64,000 nucleotides of DNA, from assembly GCA_965226235.1 (NCBI GenBank), contig OZ245335.1, forward strand, positions 1,066,375-1,130,374, in the 5' to 3' direction. Below the pieces are notes generated by a model, which worked only from the letters and a program-made list of their open reading frames with translations, ran no database searches and had not been told where the DNA came from. How positions within the stretch are numbered: the first letter of the stretch is position 1; each line of letters begins with the position of its first letter. Made by a program: the position numbers and the translations under genes. This document shows positions 9,120-23,592 of this stretch, piece by piece. This DNA is from Candidatus Oxydemutatoraceae bacterium (lineage in GTDB: Bacteria > Pseudomonadota > Gammaproteobacteria > Poriferisulfidales > Oxydemutatoraceae).

Positions 9120-9564
9120 CGCCGCTGCCGATAAGAAAACTGCAGGCAAGCCGGCGCCGACAATGAAAATGGTGTTCGGCCATGCGTCTGCCATCACGAA
9201 AGCTGTTTCCAGTCTAGAAATCATCGGCGAATCGAGCTTTGCCCAGTGCTCTGCATGCATGGTCTGAAAAGGTTTCTCGCTTACAATCAAGGTCAGGCTC
9301 ACTAACCAAAGCTTGCATCGTATGACCCTGGAAAGACTGTATTTGTTGCATCAGATACTAACCCGGAAATTTCACCGATTTGTAATTTCGGCATAGATTC
9401 CCGTTGAGCAGCACTGATTTTTTGTCCTGGTACGTTCTCCATGCATCCGATCCCGTATCGGATGACTGTTATCGCCTGTCCGAGGGTATCCGGAGGGGTT
9501 GGCGCAGGCCAGCTACCTGGCGGATCCCGTGGGTTGTAAGGGCCATAAGCCCAAGATTTCTATT

Positions 9565-9573
9565 TGCTATAAT
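9565..9573 (+). promoter_or_regulatory. Extended -10 element TGcTATAAT on the plus strand. It could be the cas9-operon promoter, placing the anti-repeat in the cas9 5' leader.
   Basis: Perfect TGnTATAAT with no good -35. Comparable motifs are expected by chance at roughly this frequency in 64 kb. Confidence 0.3.
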
Positions 9574-9601
9574 AAAAAATGATCCCCCACTGGGAGGGAT
9601 C
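9571..9601 (-). terminator. Intrinsic terminator on the minus strand: stem-loop GATCCCTCCCAGTGGGGGATC followed by ATTTTTTATT
   Basis: An 8-bp GC-rich stem (one G-U pair), a 5-nt loop and a U-run, ~110 nt downstream of the predicted minus-strand start. Confidence 0.6.
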
Positions 9602-9680
9602 TGGTCGCATTGAAAGCGGCGCCTGCGAAGCCAATGGCTTCTTGGTATGAAAAGCCTGATAGGCCTTGGTCAGTTACACT
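9571..9680. ncRNA. tracrRNA: tracrRNA locus. The anti-repeat at 9658-9680 matches 23 nt of the CRISPR repeat with 1 mismatch, but the strand is unresolved. Minus strand: ~110-nt RNA with its own promoter and terminator. Plus strand: anti-repeat with canonical Cas9 geometry, but the tail overlaps the cas9 start.
   Basis: Plus strand 9658-9680 reads GATAGGCCTTGGTCAGTTACACT, the reverse complement of the first 23 nt of the repeat AGTGTAACTGACCAAGACCTATC apart from one mismatch. Promoter and terminator signals are listed as separate features. Confidence 0.55.
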
Positions 9681-9687
9681 GGCTGAG

Positions 9688-9716
9688 AATATAGCACGGG
9701 AGCGAGAGTGAGTCAA
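9688..9716 (-). promoter_or_regulatory. Sigma70-like promoter on the minus strand. The -35 TTGACT (9711-9716) and -10 TATATT (9688-9693) are separated by 17 bp, with the predicted start at 9680, the first base of the repeat-like segment. It overlaps the cas9 start codon in antisense.
   Basis: Hexamers and spacing read directly from the sequence. Confidence 0.5.
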
Positions 9717-12700
9717 AAGATTCTGGGACTGGATTTAGGAACCAATTCGGTTGGGTGGGCTTTGCTTGAGGGCAGAGGCGGCAAGCCACGGGAAATTATC
9801 GATGTCGGGGTTCGTATATTCAATGAAGCCATTGACAGCAAAAATAAAACACCGAAGAACGCGCAAAGAAGGCAGGCGCGTTTGGCAAGAAGGGTTTTAC
9901 AAAGACGAGCGCGCCGCAAGAGAAAAATGCTGTCTCTTCTGGTCAAGCAGGGGTTTTTGCCGCACAAGGCCCTGTCTTCGACCAACCTCGAAGGTATTTT
10001 GCATGAGCTTGGCGATCCTTATGAACTCAGGGCACGGGCACTGAATGACAGATTGTCTGAACACGAGTTGGGGCGCGTATTTTTTCATCTGGTACAAAGA
10101 CGGGGCTTCCTGAGCAACAAGAAAACGTTGTTGGGCGACATGGCCGATGACCCGGATGTAAAAGAAATACTGCAACAGGACGACAAACCTGATAACCAGA
10201 GCGATTCCGATGAGGAAAAAAAGAAGAATAAGGAAGAGAGTGAGTTCAAGCGGCATATATCCGAATTGAGAAACAAGATAGAAGCATCGGGTGCCAGAAC
10301 GCTGGGTGAGTATCTTCATAAGCATCGTAAAAACAACCTTAAACGCAATCGTTCTCATGCAGGCGAGTACGAGTATCTGAGAACAGATCGTCGCATGTAT
10401 CAGGAGGAGTTCGATAAGATCGTTAAAGCACAACGAAGATTGGGTGCCTCGTTACCTCAAGAGACTGTTGAGGCTGAGTTGCACAAGATCATATTTTTCC
10501 AGAGGCCTCTGAAATTCCGTTCCGATCGGGTAGGCAAATGCACCTTGGAACTTGGGAAAAACCGCGCGCGCATGGGGAGACTGGAGGCGCAGCGGTTCCG
10601 CTATTTGCAGGACATCAATCATCTGAAATATCGAGACATTGATGATTCTGAAAGGTCTGTAGGTGACAATGACCGGACGAAGTTGAAGGAATTGTTTGAG
10701 ACCGTTGAGAAGCCTACTTTCAGCAAAATAAAAAAAGTGCTGGGATTGAGCAAGGGGGTCAAGCTGAATCTGGAAGAGTATGGAACGAAAAAGCTGAAAG
10801 GCAACACGACTGCTTGCAGAATCAGAAAGGTTTATTCCGGGTGGGATGAGTTGAGCGCCGAGCAGCAAAAAAAGCTGGTTGAAGACCTGATTACGATCAA
10901 GAAAAAAAGCGTCTTGAAGAAACGCTTGATGAACCATTGGCGGTTCAGTAAGGAATCGACTGTCAATCTTTGTCTGATAGAGCTTGAGCCGGGGCATTCC
11001 AACCATAGCTTAAAGGCGATTGACAGAATATTGCCCTTCCTGGAGAAAGGGGAAATCTATTCCGACGCTCGGGAGAGTGCCGGGTATGGCTATGAGCAGG
11101 TGCAGCAAGATAGTCGGGAAACATTGGGAGAGCCGCCTGCAATACCCAACCCCATCGTCAGCAGGGGGCTCAGCGAGTTGCGCCGTGTAGTCAACGCCAT
11201 CATTGCCGAGTATGGCAAGCCCGATATCATCCGAATAGAAATGGCGCGTGATTTGGAAATGAACACTAAAAAGTACAAGCAGTATCAGAAGCAGATAAAC
11301 GCCAACTATAAAGCGAACGAGGAAGCGGCAGAAGAGTACGGGAAAGTAGCACGAGCCAACCCGCACTTGCGACTGAGAGACGAGGCTTCACGCGATGACA
11401 AAATTCGTTACCGGTTGTGGAAAGACCAGGATTGTCGATGCGTGTACAGCGGCCGGTCAATAGGGGGGCATGAGCTTTTCAGTCCCGAAGTGGAAATCGA
11501 CCATATCGTTCCCTATAGCCAATCACTGGATGATTCGTACATGAACAAGGTTGTTTGCCTGACGAAGGAAAATCGCTTCAAGGGACAGAGAACCCCAGTC
11601 GATGCGTTTGGTGGCAATGCAGAAAAGTGGCAGCAAATACGAGGAACGATAGAGAAATGGGGGAAGCCGTTGGCATCCAAGAAGAATCGTTTCTATTTGA
11701 CTGCTGAACAGGTAGAGCAAAGGGGGTTTGCTTCAAGACAGTTGAATGATACGCGTTATATCAGCAAGGAAGCGCAGGAGTATGTGCGTCAGTTGGGCGC
11801 GGATGTAAGTGTTACCAAGGGAGCTACCGTTGCCTTGCTCAGACGTCAGTGGGGGTTGAATCGTATTTTGTCTTCCGATGGTGGAAAGAATCGGGCAGAT
11901 CATCGGCATCATGCTGTTGACGCGGTTGTCATCGCGTCGATAGATCGCGGGATCCACCAAAGGCTCGTAAAAAGCGCACAGGAAGTCGAGCGGCAAGGAA
12001 GTGAGCTTGCCACGCGCAGGCTGGTGCTGGATATGCCTTATCCCGAGTTGAGGGATGAAATCGAGGACAAGTTAAACCGAGTTATTGTGTCGCATGATCC
12101 GCAGCGTAAGGTTTCCGGGGCTCTACACAAGGGTAAGGGGCTGGGCTTCAAAAAAGGGATTGGCTTGATCACCAGAAAGCATCTTGACAGTGAAATTACG
12201 TCTAAGCAGGTAAAAAATATTGTCGATCCGGTTGTCCGGGGTCAAGTCGAGGATCATCTTATGCAATATGGCGGCTCGCCAAAGATCGCATTTGCCGAGG
12301 ATGTTATTGTGCGGCATAAGAATGGCAGGACGCCGATCAGGCGAGTACGGGTTGTTCAGTCCAAAACGACGTTCGAAAAGCTTGAGAGTGGTAAGTACAG
12401 CAAGTTTGGCGTGAAAAATAAAGATGGTGAGGTTTTTAAGTGGATGGATTATGGCAACACTCATCACGTCGAAATTCTCCAGAGCAAAAAGGATACGGGT
12501 AAAATCAAGGGCGAGTTCGTTACCACAATGGAGGCAGCGAAAAGGGCAAGAAGAAACAGAACTCGGTCATTGGTCAGAACCGATCATGGAGAAGAATGGA
12601 GGCTCTTGATGGTGTTGCACATAAACAACCTGGTGAGTGTGAAGGTGAACGATTGCAGACAGATTTACAGAGTGCAGAAGCTTAGTAAAACCAGGAACAG

Positions 12701-12842
12701 CATAACCCTGAGGCTGCATACGGCGGCGACGCTGGAAAACAAGGATGAAAAAGGGATCGAGTTGAGAATCAACCCAGAGAATTTTGAGAAACATAAGCCG
12801 AAGTTGTTGCAGGTTAACGCGATTGGAAAATTATTGTCGTGA
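9708..12842 (+). CDS. cas9: Cas9, type II-C size class (1044 aa), GTG start
   Basis: N-terminal RuvC-I ILGLDLGTNSVGWA, HNH motif EIDHIVPYSQSLDDSYMNKVVCLTKENRFKGQRTP and RuvC-III HHAVDAVVIA. A GGGAG Shine-Dalgarno lies 7 nt upstream of the GTG. It overlaps cas1 by 4 bp. Confidence 0.95.
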   Translation: MSQKILGLDLGTNSVGWALLEGRGGKPREIIDVGVRIFNEAIDSKNKTPKNAQRRQARLARRVLQRRARRKRKMLSLLVKQGFLPHKALSSTNLEGILHELGDPYELRARALNDRLSEHELGRVFFHLVQRRGFLSNKKTLLGDMADDPDVKEILQQDDKPDNQSDSDEEKKKNKEESEFKRHISELRNKIEASGARTLGEYLHKHRKNNLKRNRSHAGEYEYLRTDRRMYQEEFDKIVKAQRRLGASLPQETVEAELHKIIFFQRPLKFRSDRVGKCTLELGKNRARMGRLEAQRFRYLQDINHLKYRDIDDSERSVGDNDRTKLKELFETVEKPTFSKIKKVLGLSKGVKLNLEEYGTKKLKGNTTACRIRKVYSGWDELSAEQQKKLVEDLITIKKKSVLKKRLMNHWRFSKESTVNLCLIELEPGHSNHSLKAIDRILPFLEKGEIYSDARESAGYGYEQVQQDSRETLGEPPAIPNPIVSRGLSELRRVVNAIIAEYGKPDIIRIEMARDLEMNTKKYKQYQKQINANYKANEEAAEEYGKVARANPHLRLRDEASRDDKIRYRLWKDQDCRCVYSGRSIGGHELFSPEVEIDHIVPYSQSLDDSYMNKVVCLTKENRFKGQRTPVDAFGGNAEKWQQIRGTIEKWGKPLASKKNRFYLTAEQVEQRGFASRQLNDTRYISKEAQEYVRQLGADVSVTKGATVALLRRQWGLNRILSSDGGKNRADHRHHAVDAVVIASIDRGIHQRLVKSAQEVERQGSELATRRLVLDMPYPELRDEIEDKLNRVIVSHDPQRKVSGALHKGKGLGFKKGIGLITRKHLDSEITSKQVKNIVDPVVRGQVEDHLMQYGGSPKIAFAEDVIVRHKNGRTPIRRVRVVQSKTTFEKLESGKYSKFGVKNKDGEVFKWMDYGNTHHVEILQSKKDTGKIKGEFVTTMEAAKRARRNRTRSLVRTDHGEEWRLLMVLHINNLVSVKVNDCRQIYRVQKLSKTRNSITLRLHTAATLENKDEKGIELRINPENFEKHKPKLLQVNAIGKLLS

Positions 12843-13738
12843 TAAAACGTGTCGTCGATGTAAGCAGCGCCAGCACGTTAAGGCTGGAGAACAAACAACT
12901 GGTCATTGAACAGGGCTTTTCTCAAGCAGCGAGAGTGTCACTGGAAGATTTGGGCATCCTGATACTGCAACACCCTGCGATCACTATTACTCAACCTGTC
13001 TTGAGAGAATGCCAAAGAAATAATGCTGCTGTCGTTTTGTGCGATGAACGCCACCTGCCTACATCGGTTATTCTGCCCTTGATGACGGGGAACTCTCTGC
13101 ATAGCAAAATCATCAGGCAGCAGATGGCAGCCAGCAAATCAAGGGAAAAAAGGGTTTGGCAACAGATTATAAGACACAAGATACGTGCTCAGATCAGGCT
13201 ACTGGCAAGACAAGAGAAGCCTACGAAAGCGCTGGAGTTGCTTTTTCAGAGAGTCAGGTCAGGAGATCCGGACAACTGTGAGGCTCAGGCCGCGCAAAAA
13301 TACTGGCCCCTGTTGTTTGGTTCCGGCTTTCGCCGGAACCAAACGGCCGACGGGATGAACGCATTGTTGAACTACGGTTATGCGATTATGCGAGCGATGT
13401 TAGCCAGAGCTGTTGTGGGCGCAGGACTGCATCCCGCATTGGGTGTGCACCATAGGAACCAGTATAACGGCCTGAATTTGGCTGACGACTTGATGGAACC
13501 TCTTAGGCCTTGGGTTGACGAAGTAGTCCTGAAACTAGCTGGAGAGAACAACCTGACTGTCAATCGTGAATCCAAGAAATGTCTGTTGGCGCTACTTTTT
13601 TCCCTAGTGATATGGAAGAAGAAATCCTTGCCCTTGATGTCCTGTAGTCATAGCCTGGTGGCTGATTTCAAGAGAATGCTGGGTGGAGACCAATCCTTTT
13701 TTGATTATCCGGTGTTATCAGAGGGTTCGGTGCAATAA
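12839..13738 (+). CDS. cas1: Cas1 integrase
   Basis: NALLNYGYAIMRA...GVHHRNQYNGLNLADDLMEPLRP motifs with conserved acidic and His residues. The length (299 aa) is typical of type II Cas1. Confidence 0.93.
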   Translation: MIKRVVDVSSASTLRLENKQLVIEQGFSQAARVSLEDLGILILQHPAITITQPVLRECQRNNAAVVLCDERHLPTSVILPLMTGNSLHSKIIRQQMAASKSREKRVWQQIIRHKIRAQIRLLARQEKPTKALELLFQRVRSGDPDNCEAQAAQKYWPLLFGSGFRRNQTADGMNALLNYGYAIMRAMLARAVVGAGLHPALGVHHRNQYNGLNLADDLMEPLRPWVDEVVLKLAGENNLTVNRESKKCLLALLFSLVIWKKKSLPLMSCSHSLVADFKRMLGGDQSFFDYPVLSEGSVQ

Positions 13739-13886
13739 ATTTACCGAATAGCCAAATGGCAGATTATTAAAGAGAACGAGGAGGGCACTTCGGCAAGGCT
13801 ATTCGCCGATCGCGTACGACACGGAGCCATCCGTCGTATAACGGATTTCCTGCTTCTACAGAGCGCCGACGTTTCAAGCAGAAAAA

Positions 13887-14216
13887 ATGGCTTTTGGTGG
13901 CCTAAATACTTTGTGGCTAATCGTGCTATTTGATTTACCTACGGATACCAAGACAGCACGTAAAAGGTACGTAAATTTCCGAAAGCACTTGCTTTCGGAC
14001 GGTTTTACGATGATGCAGTATTCGGTTTACATGCGACATAGCGCCAGTGAGGAAAACGCTCAGGTGCACCGTAACCGTGTCAAACAGTTTTTACCGCCTG
14101 AGGGAGAGGTCCGGATGATCAAGATCACCGACAAGCAGTTTTCAAAAATAGAGGTTTTCTACGGCAAAAAACGTGTTCCTATTGAACCAGCCCCCAGCCA
14201 ATTGCAATTACTCTGA
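13887..14216 (+). CDS. cas2: Cas2
   Basis: LIVLFDLPTDTKTARKRYVNFRKHLLSDGFTMMQYSVY closely resembles type II Cas2 (FDMPTDT...RKFLL...QFSVY). Confidence 0.9.
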   Translation: MAFGGLNTLWLIVLFDLPTDTKTARKRYVNFRKHLLSDGFTMMQYSVYMRHSASEENAQVHRNRVKQFLPPEGEVRMIKITDKQFSKIEVFYGKKRVPIEPAPSQLQLL

Positions 14217-14264
14217 ACGAACTTCTACCAAAAGTTCTTTATTTTCAATGCGTTGTGTTGGGAA

Positions 14265-15435
14265 TAGTGTAACTGACCAAGACCTATCCGCAAATCACAA
14301 TCCCATTCAGCCGACATATAGAATACGTCCGCGAGTGTAACTGACCAAGACCTATCCGCAAATCACAATACGTATTACGGTGTAGGGTGAGTCGGATAAG
14401 AGTGTAACTGACCAAGACCTATCCGCAAATCACAATTGCCGAAGCTGCCTGTTGATAAATTCAGAGAGTGTAACTGACCAAGACCTATCCGCAAATCACA
14501 ATGCCCGTGGGGGCCGGTCCAGTCTGCTGACAAGTGTAACTGACCAAGACCTATCCGCAAATCACAATCGTTCACCCTGCGTGGCTCATCGTACCTGTAG
14601 TGTAACTGACCAAGACCTATCCGCAAATCACAATCAGTGGGTAGACTGGCATGAAAGGCAAAACTATAGTGTAACTGACCAAGACCTATCCGCAAATCAC
14701 AATCAGCGTAACCTTGAGCCCGCGTTCGCCTCCGAGTGTAACTGACCAAGACCTATCCGCAAATCACAATAGGCAAGAGATAGACCGCCTGATCGGAGAA
14801 AGTGTAACTGACCAAGACCTATCCGCAAATCACAATCCGGATTCAAGCGAGTCTCTATCGACAAACAGTGTAACTGACCAAGACCTATCCGCAAATCACA
14901 ATCCGTAGTCCCGCCAACCAATATAGACTTGCAGTGTAACTGACCAAGACCTATCCGCAAATCACAATAGTTCGGTGATTGGTGGGCTTAGGGTGAAAAG
15001 TGTAACTGACCAAGACCTATCCGCAAATCACAATTCAGATGGCAACTGCGAGATATGCGCAAAAGTGTAACTGACCAAGACCTATCCGCAAATCACAATC
15101 GGTGCTGACAACGCATGCCTGCCACACGTAGTGTAACTGACCAAGACCTATCCGCAAATCACAATCTTAATGTGGTAGCAAATCATCCCTTCCCTTAGTG
15201 TAACTGACCAAGACCTATCCGCAAATCACAATCATGGCGTGCTTTACGATCTCACGCGGATAAGTGTAACTGACCAAGACCTATCCGCAAATCACAATGA
15301 AGCTGTAACTGCTGCACTTCAGATGGCGGGATAAGTGTAACTGACCAAGACCTATCCGCAAATCACAATTCGATCTCTGTTGCCTCAACAAGCACGGTCA
15401 AGTGTAACTGACCAAGACCTATCCGCAAATCACAA
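14265..15435. CRISPR. CRISPR array of 18 identical 36-bp repeats (AGTGTAACTGACCAAGACCTATCCGCAAATCACAAT) and 17 spacers of 29-35 bp, mostly 30. Only the last base of the last repeat differs (T to C).
   Basis: Repeats counted directly, with starts at 14265, 14333, 14400, 14466 ... 15400. The transcribed strand is not determinable from sequence alone. Confidence 0.97.
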
Positions 15436-15499
15436 CCGTCTTTAGCCACGGTGTATCGACCATGAAGCCAGGCGGGACTTTATCCAAGAGTGGTTTCAA

Positions 15500-15645
15500 T
15501 CTTTGTGTTCTTTGATGGTACATAGCCATTAAACTATTATATATTCAAAATATGTTCAAAGGATTTTTTAGTTCTTGTGCATATACATGGTCTATTGCCA
15601 TTCAAATCAATGCAATTCAAAATCAGGATACGGATGATTCAATCA
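15500..15645. promoter_or_regulatory. AT-rich leader-like block abutting the cas-distal end of the array, with four TTCAAA-containing direct motifs
   Basis: A strongly AT-rich ~150 bp containing tattcaaaat, tgttcaaagg, cattcaaatc and aattcaaaat. No ORFs lie here. Confidence 0.35.
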
Positions 15646-16135
15646 CTCGAGAGCGAGCGCAATATACAAGGCAGGAGGATCGCGCGTTTGGCCCGAACGT
15701 GGCGGCTTTAACGGGCCAAGTCATCTGAGCGGCGGGCAGGCTGTCGACGACGAAGACAACATGAGCTGGTGCGGCCGACGTGGACTACCGGGTCAGGACC
15801 CGTACATCAATGCATCGATCCGGTCGGCGATCTTTTGTGCGGATTCTCGAAATTTCTCGACAGTCCAGCCGGCCACCTAGCCTTCGGTAACACCGTTAAG
15901 CCGAGCATGGTTGGCGAGGCGTTTGGTGAGCGAGGGATGCAGCATTAGTTCTTGCTCGGCGGCGGTGATAAAGCAGTTCCACAACATTCCCTGCAACTCT
16001 TTTTGCATGAGCATTTCAGTTCCATTTTGTTCCCACTCATTCTCACTTTTGCCAGTAAGGTGTGAGATCAAATCGAAAACTACTAAAGATCCGCCAATTT
16101 TCAGTAAAGGGATACAGTTCATCCAAATACCTAAC

Positions 16136-17617
16136 CTACCGCAAACCAGAAAGCACCTCGCGAAAACTGTTGAGACCAGCTTCAAGGTTCTCAATGATCT
16201 CTTCGGCAAGATCGTTAGGCTCGGGCAGGTTGTCCAGATCGGTCAGGTTCTTGTCCTTGAGCCAGAAGATGTCCAGGCTGGTCTTGCCGCGCGCGCTGAT
16301 CTCCTCGTAGCTGTAGCTGCGCCAACGGCCTTCCGGTGCGTCCTTTTCGTCATAGGTCGCCTTGCGCTGATGTCGGTTCTGCGGGTTGTAGCAGTTGATG
16401 AAGTCCGACAGATCCTCGAAGCGCATCGGCTTCTTCTTCAGCGTATGGTGAATGTTGGTGCGGTAGTCGTAGTACCAGACCTGCTTTGTCCAGGGATTCG
16501 GGTTGGCTTCGTGGTTGTCGAAGAAGATCACATTGGCCTTGACTCCTTGCGCGTAAAACACGCCGGTCGGCAAGCGTAGGATGGTGTGCAGGTCCGTGTT
16601 GTCCAGCAGCTTCTTGCGGATCGTTTCACCGGCACCGCCTTCAAACAGCACGTTGTCGGGAACGACGACGGCAGCGCGGCCAGTGGTCTTGAGCAGCGTG
16701 CGGATGTGCTGCACGAAATTTAGCTGCTTGTTCGAGGTCGTCGCCCAGAAATCCTGCCGGTTATAGGTCAGGTCGTCGGTTTCCTGCTCGCCTTCCTCGT
16801 TCGTGAAGCTCATGGAGCTTTTCTTGCCGAAGGGCGGGTTCGCCAGCACATAGTCAAAGCGCCTTCCGGCATCGGCCACGAGCGAATCGTTTGGCAATAT
16901 GGGCACGCCGCCGTCGATCTCGCCGATGTTGTGCAGGAACATGTTCATCAGACACAGACGGCGTGTATTGGCGACGATCTCGTTGCCGTGAAACGCCTTG
17001 TGCTTCAGGAACGCCTTCTGCTTCTTGTCTAGGTTGAAGTTGTCCGGGTTGGTCATGAAGTCGTAGGCGGCGAGAAAGAAACCGCCCGTACCGCAGGCCG
17101 GGTCGGCGATGAGCGTACCCGGTTCGGGCCGTACGCATTCGACCATGGCGCGGATGAGAGCGCGGGGCGTGAAATACTGGCCGGCACCTGATTTGGTGTC
17201 TTCGGCATTCCGCTCCAGCAGGCCTTCGTAGATGTCGCCCTTGATATCCGCGCCCATGGTGACCCACTCTGTGTCGTCCACCATGTCGATGAGGCGGAAC
17301 AGCTTTGCCGGGTCTTGAATCTTGTTCTGGGCCTTGGTGAAGATATGGCCCAGCATGTCCTTCTTCGTACCGAGTTCACGCAGCAGAGCGATATAGTGGT
17401 TTTCGAGCTCCGCACCCCGCCTTGCTTTCAGGGTCTGCCAGTTGAATTTGGCTGGGATACCGACATCGCGGTTGTACGGGGGGTTGGCGTACTCGCCGGC
17501 CATCTTGAGGAAGATCAGATAGGTGAGTTGCTCCAGGTAGTCGCCATAGCTCACCCCGTCATCGCGCAGGGTGGTGCAGAAGCTCCAGACTTTGGAGACG
17601 ATGGGAGCGGTGTTCAT
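16136..17617 (-). CDS. hsdM: Type I restriction-modification N6-adenine methyltransferase subunit HsdM
   Basis: HsdM N-terminal domain and the LANPPFG catalytic motif. The reading frame is intact. Confidence 0.9.
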   Translation of the reverse strand: MNTAPIVSKVWSFCTTLRDDGVSYGDYLEQLTYLIFLKMAGEYANPPYNRDVGIPAKFNWQTLKARRGAELENHYIALLRELGTKKDMLGHIFTKAQNKIQDPAKLFRLIDMVDDTEWVTMGADIKGDIYEGLLERNAEDTKSGAGQYFTPRALIRAMVECVRPEPGTLIADPACGTGGFFLAAYDFMTNPDNFNLDKKQKAFLKHKAFHGNEIVANTRRLCLMNMFLHNIGEIDGGVPILPNDSLVADAGRRFDYVLANPPFGKKSSMSFTNEEGEQETDDLTYNRQDFWATTSNKQLNFVQHIRTLLKTTGRAAVVVPDNVLFEGGAGETIRKKLLDNTDLHTILRLPTGVFYAQGVKANVIFFDNHEANPNPWTKQVWYYDYRTNIHHTLKKKPMRFEDLSDFINCYNPQNRHQRKATYDEKDAPEGRWRSYSYEEISARGKTSLDIFWLKDKNLTDLDNLPEPNDLAEEIIENLEAGLNSFREVLSGLR

Positions 17618-19233
17618 GCGGAGGTGTTCTTCCCTTTGATCTGTTCAGCGAACGCCTCGCCTTGAGCGGTTCGGCGATAGCGCTGGTTTCGGCTATGCGG
17701 CTTGTCGGGGAGAGTCATTTCAACCAGTTCGGCCACAAGGGCGGGCCGCAAATAGACCGTGGCGAAGTGGCCGCGATGTTTCAGTTGCAGTGCCATTTGC
17801 AGTTCTACCCGGCTCATCTCTCCGGTGAGCGCAACTACCAGTTGCTCGACATGTGCGGTAACTTGGTCGGTCACTGGATCGGTCATTTGTGCGGTATACC
17901 GAATATCATCCTGCTTTATCAAATACTTATCTTGTGCGGCAACTTGGTCGGTCTCATGCTCGGTCGCCACGTTGGCCGCCCGCTCGTGCACCGGCAGCCG
18001 AACCAGAAACCAGGTTCGGTCCTCGTCGCTCTCGAAGACCGGCTCCGGGGAGCCGTTCTGCTGCATGGCTCGCAGAATCTTGGGGACCCCGGTTGACCTG
18101 CCCTCGGCCAACTCGAGTTCCTTGAGAAACTCTCCAATTCGACGATTGCGGTAGCGGCGGCTGACGGCTTGCCCGTTCTTGAAATCTTCCATGCGGATCG
18201 ATCGGTCGGCGCCCGGAAAGCTCAAGACCACCAGTTCTTCAGAGGTGATGTGCACTTCGACAGGTTCACGTTCTTCATATGAGCGGTGGTAGATCGCATT
18301 CACCAGTGCCTCTTCGATGGCACCAATGGGAAAGTTCCAGAATCGCTCCGCTTCGGGCTTGTGTGGATGCTTGACGACCGTTTCCTTCAGGTGGTTCCGT
18401 CCGATGTAGCTGATCGCCTCGCTGAGGATGATCGACAGGGGGCCGCGAAACTCCTTCTCCTCGAAATGGTCTCCGCCAGGGCCATCCGGAAACCAAACAA
18501 CATCAATCTGAGTTGCCGGAAAGAAGTCGTGCGGGCGGTCGTTAAAAAACAGCAAGCCGACGTTCTTGGGGAACATCGCTTCGGGAGGACCGCCGACGAT
18601 GTTCATGCGTTGACCCAGGCTCTCAATCGGGAGATCGACCGCCTCAGAGGCGAGGTCGCTGCCGATGTCGCGCAGGAATTCCTGGATAAGCCGATGCGAA
18701 AGGTCATCAAGCGAAGCCGTCTGGCGATACCTGTCATCAAAGGGCACGGTGGCGGCCAGGCTGAGCAACTCGCGTTCATCACGGCCTCTCGCACGGACCG
18801 TGCTTGTGTGTTTGCGAACGAAGTATGCCCACTCCGAGCGCCCCTTGGTGAGATTTACTCTGGCTTTGTAAGGACGGGTTTCACCGCCAGGTGCCCAGAG
18901 CACGAGTATGGTTCTGCCATCAATATCGTAGGTCCCCGTAAGCGGGTGGTAATAGGGCTGTATGGCCGAATTGCCCAGACTCAGCAGTTCCTTCTGGATC
19001 GCATCGATGGAATCCGGAGGAATGCCCTTGGGCGGCAGTACTGGGCGGCCGTCGCGCTCCTCGACCCCCAATACGACGTAACCGCCGCCCAGATTGTGGA
19101 AGTCGTTGGCGAAGGCGCAGATGGTGTACAACACACTCTGCGGATTCCAACCAGCCTTGTACTCGATGCGCTCGCCTTCAATGGTGCGCTGGCGAAGCAG
19201 GCGGTTGATGTTGATGGGAAGTTTGCCGGTCAT
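17614..19233 (-). CDS. AlbA_2 / divergent-AAA (Schlafen-like) DNA-binding protein with a C-terminal HTH, commonly annotated as RecG-like and often embedded in type I R-M loci
   Basis: N-terminal ...YKAGWNPQSV...GGGYVVLGVEE and a C-terminal RRYRNRRIGEFLKELELAEGRSTGVPKI region. It lies between hsdS and hsdM. Confidence 0.65.
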   Translation of the reverse strand: MTGKLPININRLLRQRTIEGERIEYKAGWNPQSVLYTICAFANDFHNLGGGYVVLGVEERDGRPVLPPKGIPPDSIDAIQKELLSLGNSAIQPYYHPLTGTYDIDGRTILVLWAPGGETRPYKARVNLTKGRSEWAYFVRKHTSTVRARGRDERELLSLAATVPFDDRYRQTASLDDLSHRLIQEFLRDIGSDLASEAVDLPIESLGQRMNIVGGPPEAMFPKNVGLLFFNDRPHDFFPATQIDVVWFPDGPGGDHFEEKEFRGPLSIILSEAISYIGRNHLKETVVKHPHKPEAERFWNFPIGAIEEALVNAIYHRSYEEREPVEVHITSEELVVLSFPGADRSIRMEDFKNGQAVSRRYRNRRIGEFLKELELAEGRSTGVPKILRAMQQNGSPEPVFESDEDRTWFLVRLPVHERAANVATEHETDQVAAQDKYLIKQDDIRYTAQMTDPVTDQVTAHVEQLVVALTGEMSRVELQMALQLKHRGHFATVYLRPALVAELVEMTLPDKPHSRNQRYRRTAQGEAFAEQIKGKNTSA

Positions 19234-20343
19234 GCTGCCATCTTTTTCTTCTTTGTTTTCTTGGCGTGGTTGTTCTTCACCGCCTGCTCTCTTACGGCCC
19301 TGATTCGGTCCAGAAGAGCCGAGGCCGGTTCGTCGTGCGGGTCCTGCGCGACGAGTTGACCGGAGAAGGCTTTCTTGAGAATCGACTGGCGCAGTGTCTC
19401 CGCCTGCTTTTGGCCGAGTCTATCTCTCGCTCCTGCCACTCAATCGCAACGCGAATCGCTCCTCTAACAGGCGGACAATTTCTTGCTGTTCGGCCAGAGA
19501 GCAAAGAGGAAGCGCGATCTGGGCAAACTTGAATGCACTCAAGTGGTTGATCCCCACGCCGCCGGCAACTTGAGCAAATTTCCCGCTTACATAGAAGAAG
19601 CGATACAACCAAAGCAGATAAACCGCATAGGCACGACAATGTGGTTGATGCCTATAACGGTGTTTTGAAAGCAGCAATTCTGGATCTGATCGTTCCAAAT
19701 CGCTGGCTTTCCGACTTGCGCTGCGCTTCCAGATGCTTCGGACAGCACCAAATCACCCTTTCTCAAACGGTATGCGCTTAGTTCGTGAGGCAGGAAATCC
19801 ATGTCGAGAATGTCGTCCAAATCCAAACCTTGTTCCGTAATGTTCGCAGCTCGGATGTACTTCGTGGGGTAATCCTTCGACCTGTTCTTTGGAGAACGTT
19901 GTCGACCGAGTTGGACGATTCCTACAGACTCGGCGGTCAACCATAGCCAACCACTCGGCAGTGATTCTAGGTGGGTAATCTCCTCTTCTGCCATCGTTAA
20001 AACTGACTTGGGCATTCTTGGCCGTACCGGCTTCTTGCCTGACTTACTGCCTTCCTCCCATGCCTTGACGGCGGTCTCCCACTCTTTGAGTTGCCGATCG
20101 TAGCGCGCCGCCCGCTCCTGTTTGATGCGGGCGAGCAACTGCTCAGGCATCTCAAGCTTGTCTTTGTTCCCTTCGCGCCACTGGGCCGTGAGCTTGCCTT
20201 CGAAGGCGTGCTTGAGCACGGCTTGGCGGTAGACATTGAGCTGTCGCCCGCGCCGTCTTCAGGCTCTCGACGCCTTTGTCCAGTTCGGAAAATAATTCCT
20301 CGATCTTGGCGACGATGCGGCGTTGTTCAGGTAGCGGAGGCAC
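19230..20343 (-). pseudogene. hsdS: Type I R-M specificity subunit hsdS, disrupted by several frameshifts
   Basis: Four overlapping ORF fragments (19230-19439, 19420-19698, 19587-20219 and 20152-20343) alternate between reading frames. Together they carry HsdS hallmarks: two central conserved LPPLxEQxxIVxxIEELF-like regions, a target-recognition-domain segment and the C-terminal LRQSILKKAFSGQLV. Confidence 0.75.
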
Positions 20344-20814
20344 CGGAATTCAAAGTGGAGAGCCAGATAGGGGGTCGGGACCCGCTGACCAACCGCGCCA
20401 GTTTGATATTGTGCCCGGCGTCCCTACGAAACGACTCCGACGATGCTTCTACAAAGAAAGACGTATTGGGCGCTTATCCCTCGCAATGAGGGTCTCAACC
20501 ACGGCCAATTCATCTTGATCCGAAAGCCAACTCGTTCTTCAGAGGCGGAACGACCGCTCCCATCTTGCCGTTTTCCATGCACGGTGTGATCTTCGCAAAG
20601 AGTACATATCTCGGAAACCGTTAGCCCTTCTTCACCTCCTCAAAGCTTCGTGCTGACTTTCCTTGGACGCCTGAAGGGGAGACTCGCAAGAACGGTTGAA
20701 TGACACCATTGTTGATGGCGACTGACTCGCCCGTGGATTCACGATTCTGCGCTTCAAGTCAGGGCGAGCTCCCAGCTATTAGGAATCATGGATTCGCTTG
20801 GGGTTCGCCGGTCA

Positions 20815-23592
20815 CTATGCCGCCAATGCCTCATTCAATTCATCAATCACATCATCCATTCGATCGCCGAAAAGCTTGTACATCTGCCCCATGCCGCCTT
20901 TGCCATCGAACGGGGCCATCTCCAGATCGTCTCGCTCCAGATGAAAGGAGTCGACGATGTGGTCACGGATCATGCGCAGCCAGTCCATCTGCTCCTCGTT
21001 GAACTTCTCGCCGCTGCCGCTGTGGCGCGTCATGATCCAATTCTGAAAATTGCGGCGCACGGTTTCCGAATACGGAGACAGCGTCGCGTCGATACCGCAG
21101 ACCCGGCGAATCAACGCCACCAGCGCGGTCAGTTCACTGGCCGGTTGGCTGCCCTTGTATTCATCCAGCAAGGAGTATGCCTGCCAGACCCGCAAAGGGG
21201 CCAGTCGGGGTTGGTCGCTCTTGAGCTTGTCGAATACCTCGCGGATCATGGCGTAGGTCAGCTCACGGCGGCGGTGCGGTTGGGCGTAGAAGATGGTCAG
21301 GGCTTCGATCTTCGTCTCGATTGGCTTCCAAATACTGGCGGAAATCCTGTGCCATGGCTTCGGCATTCTCGTGTGCGTCGCCTTCCCATTCGGCGCGCAG
21401 CACCGAATCCAGGCTGTCATGGTCGATGGTCTGTTCCTTGTCGCGGCGAATCGAGTCGATCAACTCGATCAGTTCGCCGTTGAACACGCCGGCCGCATCT
21501 CGCCTAGCTGCAATTCCTGAGCCTTGTCGCTCGTGGCCGGTGACGGCTCGGCACCGTCGGGCACGGGCTCGGTATCACGCGCCTTCTCCTGAATGCGGTC
21601 AGGGTCAATGGCGGCCAGCAGATTGCCGACGATATTGGTGAGTTCGAGGCCGCCGGCTTGCTCCTTGATTCGCTCCCGCTCAGTGGAATCGAGTTGTTGA
21701 TTGAGCCGGGCAAGGCGTCCGGCGAGAGAACTCACCGTGTCTTCATCGCGCGCACCCATCATCACGCCCATGGCGAGGTCCCGGAGTGGCACGGCGGGCT
21801 TGGTGATGAGCGGTTGGCTGGCGGTCTTGAGCGATTTCGTGACACCGACGGCATCCACGATCACGTAGTGGGTCTTGCCGCTGACGGCGGAGGGCGAGAC
21901 CTTCTTGAGATCGTCGTGGTCGAGGGTGCGGGAGCCACGACCCTTCATCTGCTCGAAATAGTTGCGGCTCCTCACGTTGCGCATGAAAAGCAGGCATTCG
22001 AGCGGTCTGACGTCGGTGCCGGTGGCGATCATATCCACGGTCACAGCGATGCGCGGGTAGTAGTCGTTGCGGAACTGGGCGAGGACAGATTTCGGGTCTT
22101 CTTCGGTTTTGTAGGTGATCTTCTTGCAGAACGCGTTGCCTTCGGCGAATTCCTCGCGCACGGTCTGAATGATGTCGTCGGCGTGGCTGTCGGTCTTGGC
22201 GAAAACGAGCGTCTTCGGAACTTCGGCGCGGCCCGGAAATATCTCAGACAGTGTGTCTCGAAAGGTGCAGACGACGGTGCGGATCTGGTCGGGGTTGACG
22301 ACGGAATGGTCCAGTTCACTGGCGGTATAGACGACGTCCTCGTCCTGAATTTCCCAGCGCTTGCGGCGCGTCAGACGCTCGCGCTTCTCGACCTGCTGGT
22401 GCGCCCTGAGTTGACCGCCGCGCTGCGTCCTTACCGTGTCGATGGCGTAGATTTCGTTGCCAACGTTGACGCCGTCGGCGACGGCTTGCTCATGGTCGTA
22501 TTCGCTGACGACGTTCTTCTTGAAGAACCCATAGGTGCGGTTATCCGGCGTGGCGGTCAGGCCGATGAGATAGGCGTCGAAATATTCCAGGACTTGACGC
22601 CAGAGGTTGTAAATCGAGCGGTGACATTCGTCGATGATGATGAAATCGAAAAACTCGGGTGGAATCTTACCGTTATAGGCAACCGGCATCGGTTCTTTGG
22701 GCTTAACCATTTCCGCCGGGTTGATCTGCTCGGCGGCTTCGTCCAGCTCCTGATCCTTCAGCAGCGAGTACATCCGCTGGATGGTGCTGATGCAGACCTG
22801 ACTGTCCTTGGCGACGGAGGACGATTTGAGGCGCTGGACGTTGTACAGCTCGGTGAATTTCCGGTTGTCGTCACTGGGCACGTAGGCCATGAATTCCTGC
22901 TCGGCCTGTTCGCCCAGATTCCTGGTGTCTACGAGAAAGAGGACGCGCTTGGCGTCAACGTGCTTGAGCAACCGGTAGATCGAGGTAATAGCAGTATAGG
23001 TCTTGCCAGAGCCAGTGGCCATCTGAATGAGGGCACGCGGGCGGTCCTCTTTGAAGGATGCTTCGAGCTTCTCAATGGCGTTGACTTGGCACGCTCTCAA
23101 TCCGGTGGGGTCTAAACTCGGTAGCGCCTGGAGCCGCTCACGAAGCGAGACCGACTGGGTGAGCCAGGCCTGTATCGTCTCTGGCCGAGGGAAGTTAAAC
23201 ACCTCTCGGGAGCGGGGTTTCGGGTCGCGTCCGTCGGTGAAACGGGTGAGTGCCCCGGTGCTTTCGTAAACGAATGACAGCGGCGCGCTATTGCTCACCC
23301 ACTTGAGTTTTGCGGACGCGTAACGCCCGGACTGCTCCTCGACCGTCGTGAGCTTATGGCCCCAATGTTCCGGCTTGGCCTCGACCACGCCGACAGGCTT
23401 CTGGTCGATGAAGAGAACGTAGTCGGCAGGGCCGACATCCGTTTGATACTCACGGACGGCGATACCGCTACCTGAGGAAAAATTGATCTCCTCCCTGTCC
23501 TGAACGAACCAGTTTGCCTGCGACAGCATCTTGTCGATAATGTCGCGTGCCTTCTGTTCGGATGTCTGGTTGGCACTTGACATTCGGTTCAC
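20815..23592 (-). pseudogene. hsdR: Type I restriction endonuclease subunit hsdR, disrupted near 21320-21470. The 707-aa N-terminal ORF ends at a TGA, and the C-terminal domain continues in other ORFs.
   Basis: The N-terminal and helicase part (QMATGSGKTYTA, DECHRS) is in ORF 21469-23592. The HsdR C-terminal domain is split across ORFs 21263-21487 and 20815-21420, in different or interrupted frames. Confidence 0.75.

Follow-up and report, generated by a model that had tools for sequence, protein, structure and literature searches.

An apparently intact type II-C CRISPR-Cas9 locus and its predicted guide RNAs in an uncultured gammaproteobacterium

A cas9-cas1-cas2 locus with an adjoining repeat array lies in a 64-kb stretch of contig OZ245335.1 from Candidatus Oxydemutatoraceae bacterium (the whole stretch is called the window, and all coordinates are positions within it). 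The host is an uncultured gammaproteobacterium whose RpoD protein shares no more than 68% identity with any other sequence and ~ 56% with named ones. The initial annotation described a complete type II-C CRISPR-Cas9 system with 17 spacers, an unusual trans-activating CRISPR RNA (tracrRNA) situation and a potentially useful or unusual effector. This raises the question of whether the locus is a working immune system, how its guide RNAs would be made, and whether its Cas9 stands apart from known ones. We conclude that it is an intact type II-C CRISPR-Cas9 adaptive immune system with the architecture and mechanism proposed below, a reading to which we assign a probability of about 0.9.

Gene content and the Cas9 protein

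The open reading frame (ORF) listing gives three full-length genes on the plus strand (Table 1): cas9, which has a GTG start, cas1 (299 aa), which overlaps the cas9 stop by 4 nt, and cas2. All three were identified by profile searches. Cas9 scored 665 bits against TIGR01865 (cut-off 100) and also matched the Pfam families PF13395 (HNH_4), PF18541 (RuvC_III), and PF18470 (Cas9_a). Cas1 scored 274.7 bits against TIGR03639 (cas1_NMENI; cut-off 120), and Cas2 matched both TIGR01573 and PF09827. The description of a complete type II-C system with intact cas9, cas1, and cas2 was thus borne out by the profile matches and the full-length ORFs. A Cas9 in which the RuvC domain is split and an HNH domain inserted identifies the locus as type II, and an adaptation module made up of cas1 and cas2 alone identifies it as subtype II-C. 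No csn2 or cas4 was found at the locus, in agreement with the annotation: the ORF map leaves no room for them between the tracrRNA gene, cas9, cas1, cas2, and the array, and three small ORFs within 700 nt past the array had no Pfam match. The subtype grouping is one by similarity rather than by a tree, in that Cas1 is of the NMENI subtype and the top PDB matches of Cas9, by sequence as well as by fold, all belong to subtype II-C. Cas9 falls outside the Cas9d group, scoring 181 bits against model NF049971, for which the cut-off is 375. The extent first given for the system (9708-15435) was correct to one base at the array end (15436) but left out the tracrRNA gene at 9574-9680, described below.

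The catalytic residues were examined in alignments with 13 and then 65 relatives. Among the RuvC residues, D9 is at least 90% conserved, and E511, H735, and D738 are invariant, as are H599 and N622 of the HNH domain. D9 is the aspartate of the LDLG motif, H599 and N622 belong to the DH...N motif, and H735 and D738 lie in HHAVDA. A phmmer alignment to ThermoCas9 sets the catalytic residues on the motifs IGLDIG, IHIELAREL, EVDHVIPYS...NKV...ENR, and HHAVDA. The RuvC-I, HNH, and RuvC-III motifs, initially called intact, are accordingly conserved in relatives and aligned with the catalytic positions of ThermoCas9, and none of the catalytic substitutions that the annotation had named as grounds for doubt was found.

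Cas9 had also been described as a small orthologue. Its length of 1044 aa is, however, usual for type II-C, and the solved relatives measure 1082-1095 aa. By sequence, the nearest solved structures are ThermoCas9 (phmmer E 4e-83), GeoCas9, and Nme1/Nme2Cas9. By fold, using Foldseek with an AlphaFold2 model (mean predicted local distance difference test score, pLDDT, 77.7; predicted template modeling score, pTM, 0.53), they are Nme1Cas9 (6jdv; E 5e-45), ThermoCas9 (9ar4), HpaCas9, and GeoCas9. In the phmmer alignment, residues 141-170 have no counterpart in ThermoCas9, and in the model residues 133-171 have a pLDDT below 50. This segment of the recognition (REC) region opens with LLGDMxDDPDV, which is invariant across the clade of related Cas9s, and continues as a variable acidic stretch. 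It can be described as a predicted disordered acidic linker of ~ 30-35 residues, typical of the clade and not private to the Cas9 of the window. A long acidic/basic insertion at residues ~ 140-215 had been proposed here; an extra segment indeed exists, but it spans ~ 30-35 residues instead of ~ 75, occurs family-wide, and is predicted to be disordered.

The tracrRNA gene and the strand of the guide RNAs

Outside the array, the window contains a single repeat-like sequence, which lies 28 nt upstream of cas9 (9658-9680). On the minus strand, it forms the core (9680-9658) of an anti-repeat that is identical to the repeat at 22 of 23 positions, the remaining difference giving a G:U pair, and that extends to 9644. 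It is followed by a nexus hairpin (9641-9627), a small hairpin (9618-9606), and the stem of a predicted intrinsic terminator (9601-9581) with a U6 tract (9579-9574). An anti-repeat and a structured tail, the two parts expected of a type II tracrRNA, are thus found together at 9680-9574 on the minus strand. The anti-repeat begins at about the transcription start predicted from a sigma-70-like promoter with its -10 hexamer at 9693-9688. This promoter came top in a scan of 7 kb (10 of 12 positions, with TG before the -10), and its -35 element shares bases with codons 2-3 of cas9, which runs on the other strand. Comparison was made with three related loci: L001, which is conspecific, L002, and L003 (Cas9 99%, 76%, and 62% identical to that of the window, respectively). 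The tracrRNA segment is conserved far above its flanks in all three, and the promoter elements TTGAC and TGnTAnnnT are kept in L002 and L003.

A wider survey covered 80 loci from GTDB genomes, with Cas9s 48-58% identical to that of the window. A simple anti-repeat search revealed the same element in the same place in 44 loci with arrays. A covariance model (R1), built from 36 tracrRNA sequences, gave exactly one match in 77 of 79 loci, always on the strand opposite cas9 and, with few exceptions, ~ 30 nt upstream of the cas9 start. In the R1 alignment, 93.8% of the cells were paired, as against 42-61% in slid controls; compensatory changes were seen in 11 of 16 pairs, and none of 500 shuffles reached the observed values. 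Variants of the hairpins are visible already in the raw sequences (GAAGCC/GGCUUC, GAAAU/AUUUC, and GGAA/UUCC). RNAalifold missed the nexus on a raw MAFFT alignment, owing to a shift of one column, and realignment with the covariance model recovered it. A search of Rfam (E <= 1) yielded nothing in the locus, and two tRNAs were the only matches across the window, so the tracrRNA call rests on our own covariance model. The tracrRNA situation, at first considered unusual, is a canonical one, with the same position and shape throughout these 77 loci.

Because the minus-strand tracrRNA nearly reproduces the plus-strand sequence of the repeat, its pairing partner is the minus-strand transcript of the array. 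In this sense, each CRISPR RNA (crRNA) would consist of a guide followed by 5'-AUUGUGAUUUGCGGAUAGGUCUUGGUCAGUUACACU-3'. Cofolding of the tracrRNA with the minus-strand repeat gave -47.7 kcal/mol. In the predicted duplex, the 5' 23 nt of the tracrRNA would pair over 23 bp with the 3' two-thirds of each repeat. The GCUUUUCAUACC segment, the guide-proximal part of the tracrRNA in the duplex, would form an imperfect pairing with the repeat at its spacer-proximal 5' end, through 2 bp, a 3x3 U-U loop, and 5 bp beside the guide; this segment is conserved in nearly all of the family. Repeat and anti-repeat co-vary block by block across the family, and their differences appear as G:U wobbles in 20 cases under the minus-strand model versus 10 under a plus-strand model (18 versus 4 outside one recurrent hotspot position). 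Although the guide architecture had been held not to be inferable, sequence and comparison were enough to derive the repeat:anti-repeat duplex as well as the crRNA strand.

The opposite arrangement would have the guides made from the plus strand, with the array read from the leader on the cas2 side and the anti-repeat at 9658-9680 carried within a plus-strand RNA such as the cas9 5' untranslated region (UTR). The cas2-side leader is where the promoter usually lies in most CRISPR types, and transcription from an extended -10 element at 9565-9573, TGcTATAAT, could run through the anti-repeat into cas9. The corresponding duplex is stable as well (-41.3 kcal/mol), though this is expected of any complementary pair. 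Past the anti-repeat, however, such an RNA would meet only the cas9 start codon 28 nt on, with no nexus, hairpins, or terminator, whereas the minus strand has all of these, conserved and covarying. The repeat/anti-repeat differences, mostly G:U pairs on the minus strand, become A:C mismatches on the plus strand, and characterized type II-C arrays use promoters embedded in the repeats instead of a leader promoter. Plus-strand guides are thus extremely improbable, and the evidence argues for guides from the minus strand.

If cas9 were transcribed from the plus-strand element at 9565-9573, just past the tracrRNA terminator, its mRNA would have a 5' UTR wholly antisense to the tracrRNA, and antisense regulation could result.

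For the minus-strand arrangement, we propose the following mechanism. The tracrRNA, which is divergent from cas9, would have an extended -10 promoter of its own, and its nexus, small, and terminator hairpins would form the handle bound by Cas9. The crRNAs would be minus-strand transcripts, opposite in sense to the cas operon. Because they would be transcribed towards the leader, a leader promoter cannot make them. Their start would most likely be directed by TACACT, a -10-like box at the 3' end of the repeat, and lie a few nucleotides inside the following spacer, which is the arrangement in Neisseria meningitidis. In the type II-C system of Neisseria, each repeat contains a promoter and transcription begins at the sixth spacer nucleotide (PMC12477760; PMC5965381); repeat-embedded promoters have been documented in both type II-C systems studied, those of Neisseria and Campylobacter (PMC5965381). 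Every repeat of the window array ends with TACACT in the crRNA sense, while those of relatives end with TATACT or TACAAT, some carrying the full TGnTACAAT. By analogy, the crRNA promoters are probably embedded in the repeats. Trimming of the duplex by RNase III may come next, after which Cas9, with its RuvC and HNH sites, and the crRNA:tracrRNA duplex would cut DNA matching the guide beside a protospacer adjacent motif (PAM). Cas1-Cas2 would insert new spacers at the cas2-proximal leader, the end at which the type II-C system of Neisseria also takes them up. Of these elements, sequence and comparison establish the gene content, the catalytic residues, the tracrRNA gene with its structure, the strand of the crRNAs, and the end at which spacers enter; the repeat promoters, RNase III trimming, DNA cleavage, and the need for a PAM are argued by analogy.

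The crRNAs might also derive from one long minus-strand precursor with a promoter past the cas-distal end of the array, the repeats being promoterless and processing left entirely, in the manner of type II-A, to RNase III and the tracrRNA. In the repeat, the -10-like box is missing the T of TGn and agrees with TATAAT at 4 of 6 positions, and an AT-rich segment at 15520-15560 contains a perfect minus-strand TATAAT ~ 100 nt outside the last repeat. On the other hand, the distal flank is not conserved in relatives, a gene standing directly at the end of the array in L002. All family variants retain TAnAnT at the 3' end of the repeat, and the precedents from Neisseria and Campylobacter likewise speak for promoters within the repeats. 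A single long precursor is possible but doubtful, and we favor repeat-embedded promoters.

The predicted duplex also provides a blueprint for a single guide RNA (sgRNA), composed of a 22-24-nt guide, AUUGUGAUUUGCGGAUAGGUC, a GAAA loop, and GGCCUAUCAGGCUUUUCAUACCAAGAAGCCAUUGGCUUCGCAGGCGCCGCUUUCAAUGCGACCAGAUCCCUCCCAGUGGGGGAUCAUUUUUU. This tracrRNA/sgRNA blueprint would extend to the whole unstudied clade, which includes methanotrophs, sulfur oxidizers, and sponge symbionts.

Spacer acquisition, spacer lengths, and targets

The array starts 49 nt after cas2 and consists of 18 copies of the 36-nt repeat AGTGTAACTGACCAAGACCTATCCGCAAATCACAAT, with 17 unique spacers of 29-35 nt. Such a repeat array is far beyond chance, and the repeat listing confirmed the 17 spacers first counted. 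All 18 repeats are identical except for their last position: 17 end with ...CACAAT and the cas-distal copy with ...CACAAC, the ending shared by all repeats of L001, L002, L003, and ~ 50 arrays of the family. In the crRNA, this private C>T variant corresponds to G>A at the first base of the repeat and would remove a predicted G:C pair with C37 of the tracrRNA beside the guide. The simplest reading is that the repeat serving as template at each integration mutated, so that every later unit inherited the change. As the derived T is present in 17 repeats and the C in the cas-distal copy, the acquisition end would adjoin cas2. Comparison with related loci agrees with this polarity. A leader junction pattern (TCAA at ~ -22, TT at ~ -12, and G..T at -4 to -1) recurs in ~ 50 of them, while the far flank of the array is unrelated between loci and degenerate repeats stand at the distal end in L003, L015, and L024. 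In addition, none of the 27 visible spacers of the conspecific L001, which has the same flanking genes, is common to the window array, and this points to ongoing spacer acquisition.

Spacer lengths set the window array apart. In the ~ 50 related arrays, 682 of 685 spacers (99.6%) are 29-31 nt long, whereas the spacers of the window (14302-15400) include lengths of 32, 33, and 35 nt. Those of L001 (14592-16440) range from 26 to 39 nt, 18 of the 27 being at least 32 nt long, and in L002 the scatter is confined to the ~ 11 leader-proximal spacers. Since the repeats are exact, the scatter is not assembly noise. We tentatively suggest that the strict 30-bp ruler by which type II systems size their spacers may have been lost from the adaptation machinery of this species. 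At positions conserved in the family, Cas1 and Cas2 have hardly changed. A causative mutation in either protein was considered, and the only candidate off the family consensus was I77M, the sole departure of Cas2 from family-conserved residues, which is unconvincing. The extra length lies at the 5' end of the guide, where crRNAs from repeat promoters are shortened anyway, and should thus be tolerated. If the ruler is indeed relaxed, either as a property of Cas1-Cas2(-Cas9) or because a host trimming nuclease is missing, the species would offer a natural variant for the study of prespacer measuring in type II-C, and crRNAs driven by repeat promoters would be seen to tolerate 5' length variation. 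The scatter is the sole point of some basic-science interest, as it bears on spacer sizing in type II-C adaptation; the locus is otherwise a textbook type II-C system.

Two further observations concern the composition of the spacers. The 5-mer CGGAT occurs in 9 of the 44 spacers of the window and L001, on the plus strand only and at varying positions, where shuffling expects 1.2. The excess is marginal, 9 being the maximum reached by any 5-mer in 300 spacer shuffles. The first plus-strand base is C or T in 37 of the 44 spacers versus 58% in the family, which is likewise marginal.

The PAM had been declared not inferable from the locus, and a comparison of the spacers with phage, plasmid, and metagenome sequences and with the host's own DNA had been proposed as a way to derive it. 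Searches of the window array against INPHARED phages and PLSDB plasmids (word size 11, E up to 10) gave only chance matches with E >= 1, and the L001 and L002 arrays had no protospacer in the same two databases. When all spacers were compared with the masked window and 83 related loci, the longest match of a window spacer was 13 nt. Degenerate two-spacer patterns from 9 window and 7 L001 spacers found no match in IMG/VR, nor did 2 window and 2 L001 spacers in JGI metagenomes. No protospacer was thus obtained and no PAM could be derived, in accordance with the original statement. As a separate observation, spacer 18 of L002 has an exact 19-nt match, which may be due to chance, in Methylovulum miyakonense HT12 (403-421 of locus L013, ~ 3.6 kb upstream of its cas9).

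These results bear on whether the locus merely looks intact and no longer confers immunity, having been recently silenced or repurposed for regulation or for adaptation only. None of the tested spacers matched anything, the abnormal length scatter might reflect sloppy or aberrant integration, and the host genome is apparently small (a 2.1-Mb contig). Yet the genes are full-length, the catalytic residues intact, the repeats identical, and the promoter and terminator of the tracrRNA preserved. Moreover, an array wholly unlike the visible one of a conspecific, with a new repeat variant in 17 units, suggests that acquisition has been recent and repeated. In an uncultured lineage so isolated in its RpoD, spacers without matches are what one would expect, and they are no mark against function. 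We consider the loss of immunity improbable.

Several points nevertheless weigh against an intact system working as proposed. With no protospacer match in the searches above, interference is a prediction. RNA ends, promoters, and processing are predictions from sequence, and the covariation alignment was fitted to the tracrRNA model, which biases it towards structure. The L001 sequence ends inside its array, so that old spacers may be shared after all. Finally, the -10-like box of the repeat, aGtTACACT, is weaker than the TGnTACAAT of Neisseria, and it is also constrained by pairing with the tracrRNA, so that its conservation is no proof of promoter function.

Relatives and genomic surroundings

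More than 2,300 homologues of the Cas9 are detectable. Hundreds of them are ~ 54% identical to it, and several have already been named Cas9 by NCBI or JGI, while no Cas9 among the GTDB species representatives exceeds 57% identity. The locus is one more member of a large, annotated, and biochemically unstudied Cas9 clade, and its tracrRNA, size, and linker are normal for this clade; the idea of an unusual effector is accordingly abandoned. In the papers searched, the clade was found only in the form of annotated arrays (PMC5361782). It comprises environmental Cas9s of ~ 1030-1045 aa from Methylococcales, Thiotrichales, SUP05 and sponge-symbiont gammaproteobacteria, Binatia, and others, with Methylovulum miyakonense HT12, Candidatus Methylobacter favarea, and the sponge symbiont Gsub as examples. 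The window shares with them a Cas9 that is 49-57% identical over its full length, the order of the locus, the position and fold of the tracrRNA, the leader junction, and the repeat family AGTGTAACyrACyAAGGyCTAyCyGCAAATCACAAC. Unlike the clade, it has the private final C>T repeat variant and scattered spacer lengths.

Among studied systems, the locus resembles that of Nme1Cas9 from Neisseria meningitidis (6jdv, 6kc8) in its cas9-cas1-cas2 order, the lack of csn2 and cas4, and the NMENI type of Cas1. The 36-nt repeat starts with GUUGU.. in the crRNA sense and ends with a TAnAnT box in both, and the 30-nt spacers of Neisseria are the norm of the family. The tracrRNA tail of Neisseria presumably contains a GGCAACGCU segment, and the tracrRNA of the window has a similar one. 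The separation of the acquisition leader from crRNA transcription is a further likeness (PMC12477760). In contrast, Cas9 is only ~ 24% identical to Nme1Cas9 over the structural alignment (phmmer E 6e-68), and the PAM-interacting domain is not alignable by sequence, so the N4GATT PAM is not transferable. The predicted disordered REC linker of ~ 30-35 residues is extra with respect to Nme1Cas9, and the window differs further in the conserved 3x3 U loop of the spacer-proximal duplex and in its weaker repeat -10 box.

ThermoCas9 and GeoCas9 from Geobacillus (9ar4, 8jtj, 8uza) are the best sequence matches among solved structures, with phmmer E-values of 4e-83 to 1e-80. RuvC-I, RuvC-II, HNH, and RuvC-III align with them residue for residue, and the sizes are similar. 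However, the match is in separate blocks, residues 141-170 are unpaired, and the PAM-interacting domain aligns weakly. The hosts differ too, a Gram-negative environmental bacterium here and a thermophilic Firmicute there. The locus thus adds a type II-C Cas9 remote from Nme1Cas9, with a predicted guide scaffold that is fully specified. With its PAM measured, it would be a candidate editor, though one of modest practical value.

A sub-clade made up of the window, L001, and L002 is distinguished from the rest of the clade by a gap of ~ 150 nt between cas1 and cas2 (Table 1). Its sequence is not conserved among the three; in L002, a gap of ~ 160 nt occupies the same place with a sequence unrelated to that of the window. 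The gap is absent in L003 and, judged by spacing, in most of the family. A second tracrRNA or another structured RNA in the gap was considered and rejected: inverted repeats are present, but the fold has a z-score of -0.63 relative to shuffled sequences, and the sequence is not conserved in L002. The Cas1 identities to L001, L002, and L003 are 99.7%, 84%, and 74%, respectively. The truncated Cas2 of L001 (68 aa according to the gene caller) was dismissed, as the underlying DNA is essentially identical to the full-length cas2 of the window.

Table 1. Features of the type II-C locus and of its neighborhood in the window; RNA ends and promoter elements are predicted
Feature	Coordinates	Strand	Remarks
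tracrRNA promoter	9688..9716	-	-35 TTGACT 9716-9711, 17-nt spacer, extended -10 TGcTATATT
tracrRNA	9574..9680	-	~ 107 nt; ends predicted
cas9	9708..12842	+	1044 aa, type II-C
cas1	12839..13738	+	type II (NMENI) subtype
cas1-cas2 gap	13739..13886		148 nt, non-coding, sub-clade-specific
cas2	13887..14216	+	109 aa
leader, acquisition end	14217..14265		49 nt; junction reads ...TTTTCAATGCGTTGTGTTGGGAAT, then repeat
CRISPR array	14266..15436	-	18 repeats, 17 spacers
terminal (oldest) repeat	15401..15436	-	ancestral ...CACAAC ending kept
hsdM	16136-17617	-	
AlbA_2/HATPase_c_4/Fic-like_C protein	17614-19233	-	
EcoEI_R_C fragment	20815-21420	-	
HsdR-like helicase	21469-23592	-	

The locus lies between a carbamoyltransferase gene and a type I restriction-modification (R-M) system. 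On the carbamoyltransferase side, ~ 450 nt up to the tracrRNA terminator (9120-9573) are without a convincing ORF, and a 69-aa ORF at 9404-9613 has no Pfam match. The G+C content is 0.475-0.489 in the segment with the cas genes and the array (10001-16000) versus 0.53-0.56 in the flanks, and the GC skew is strongly positive (0.15-0.19) over cas9 and cas1. Together, these values suggest that the locus was acquired horizontally. L002 carries the locus in a different genomic context, which, like the low G+C content and the adjoining R-M system, fits a mobile defense island. The R-M system follows directly after the array (16136-23592, minus strand). A 210-aa ORF within it (19587-20219) has no Pfam match, and hsdR may be split.

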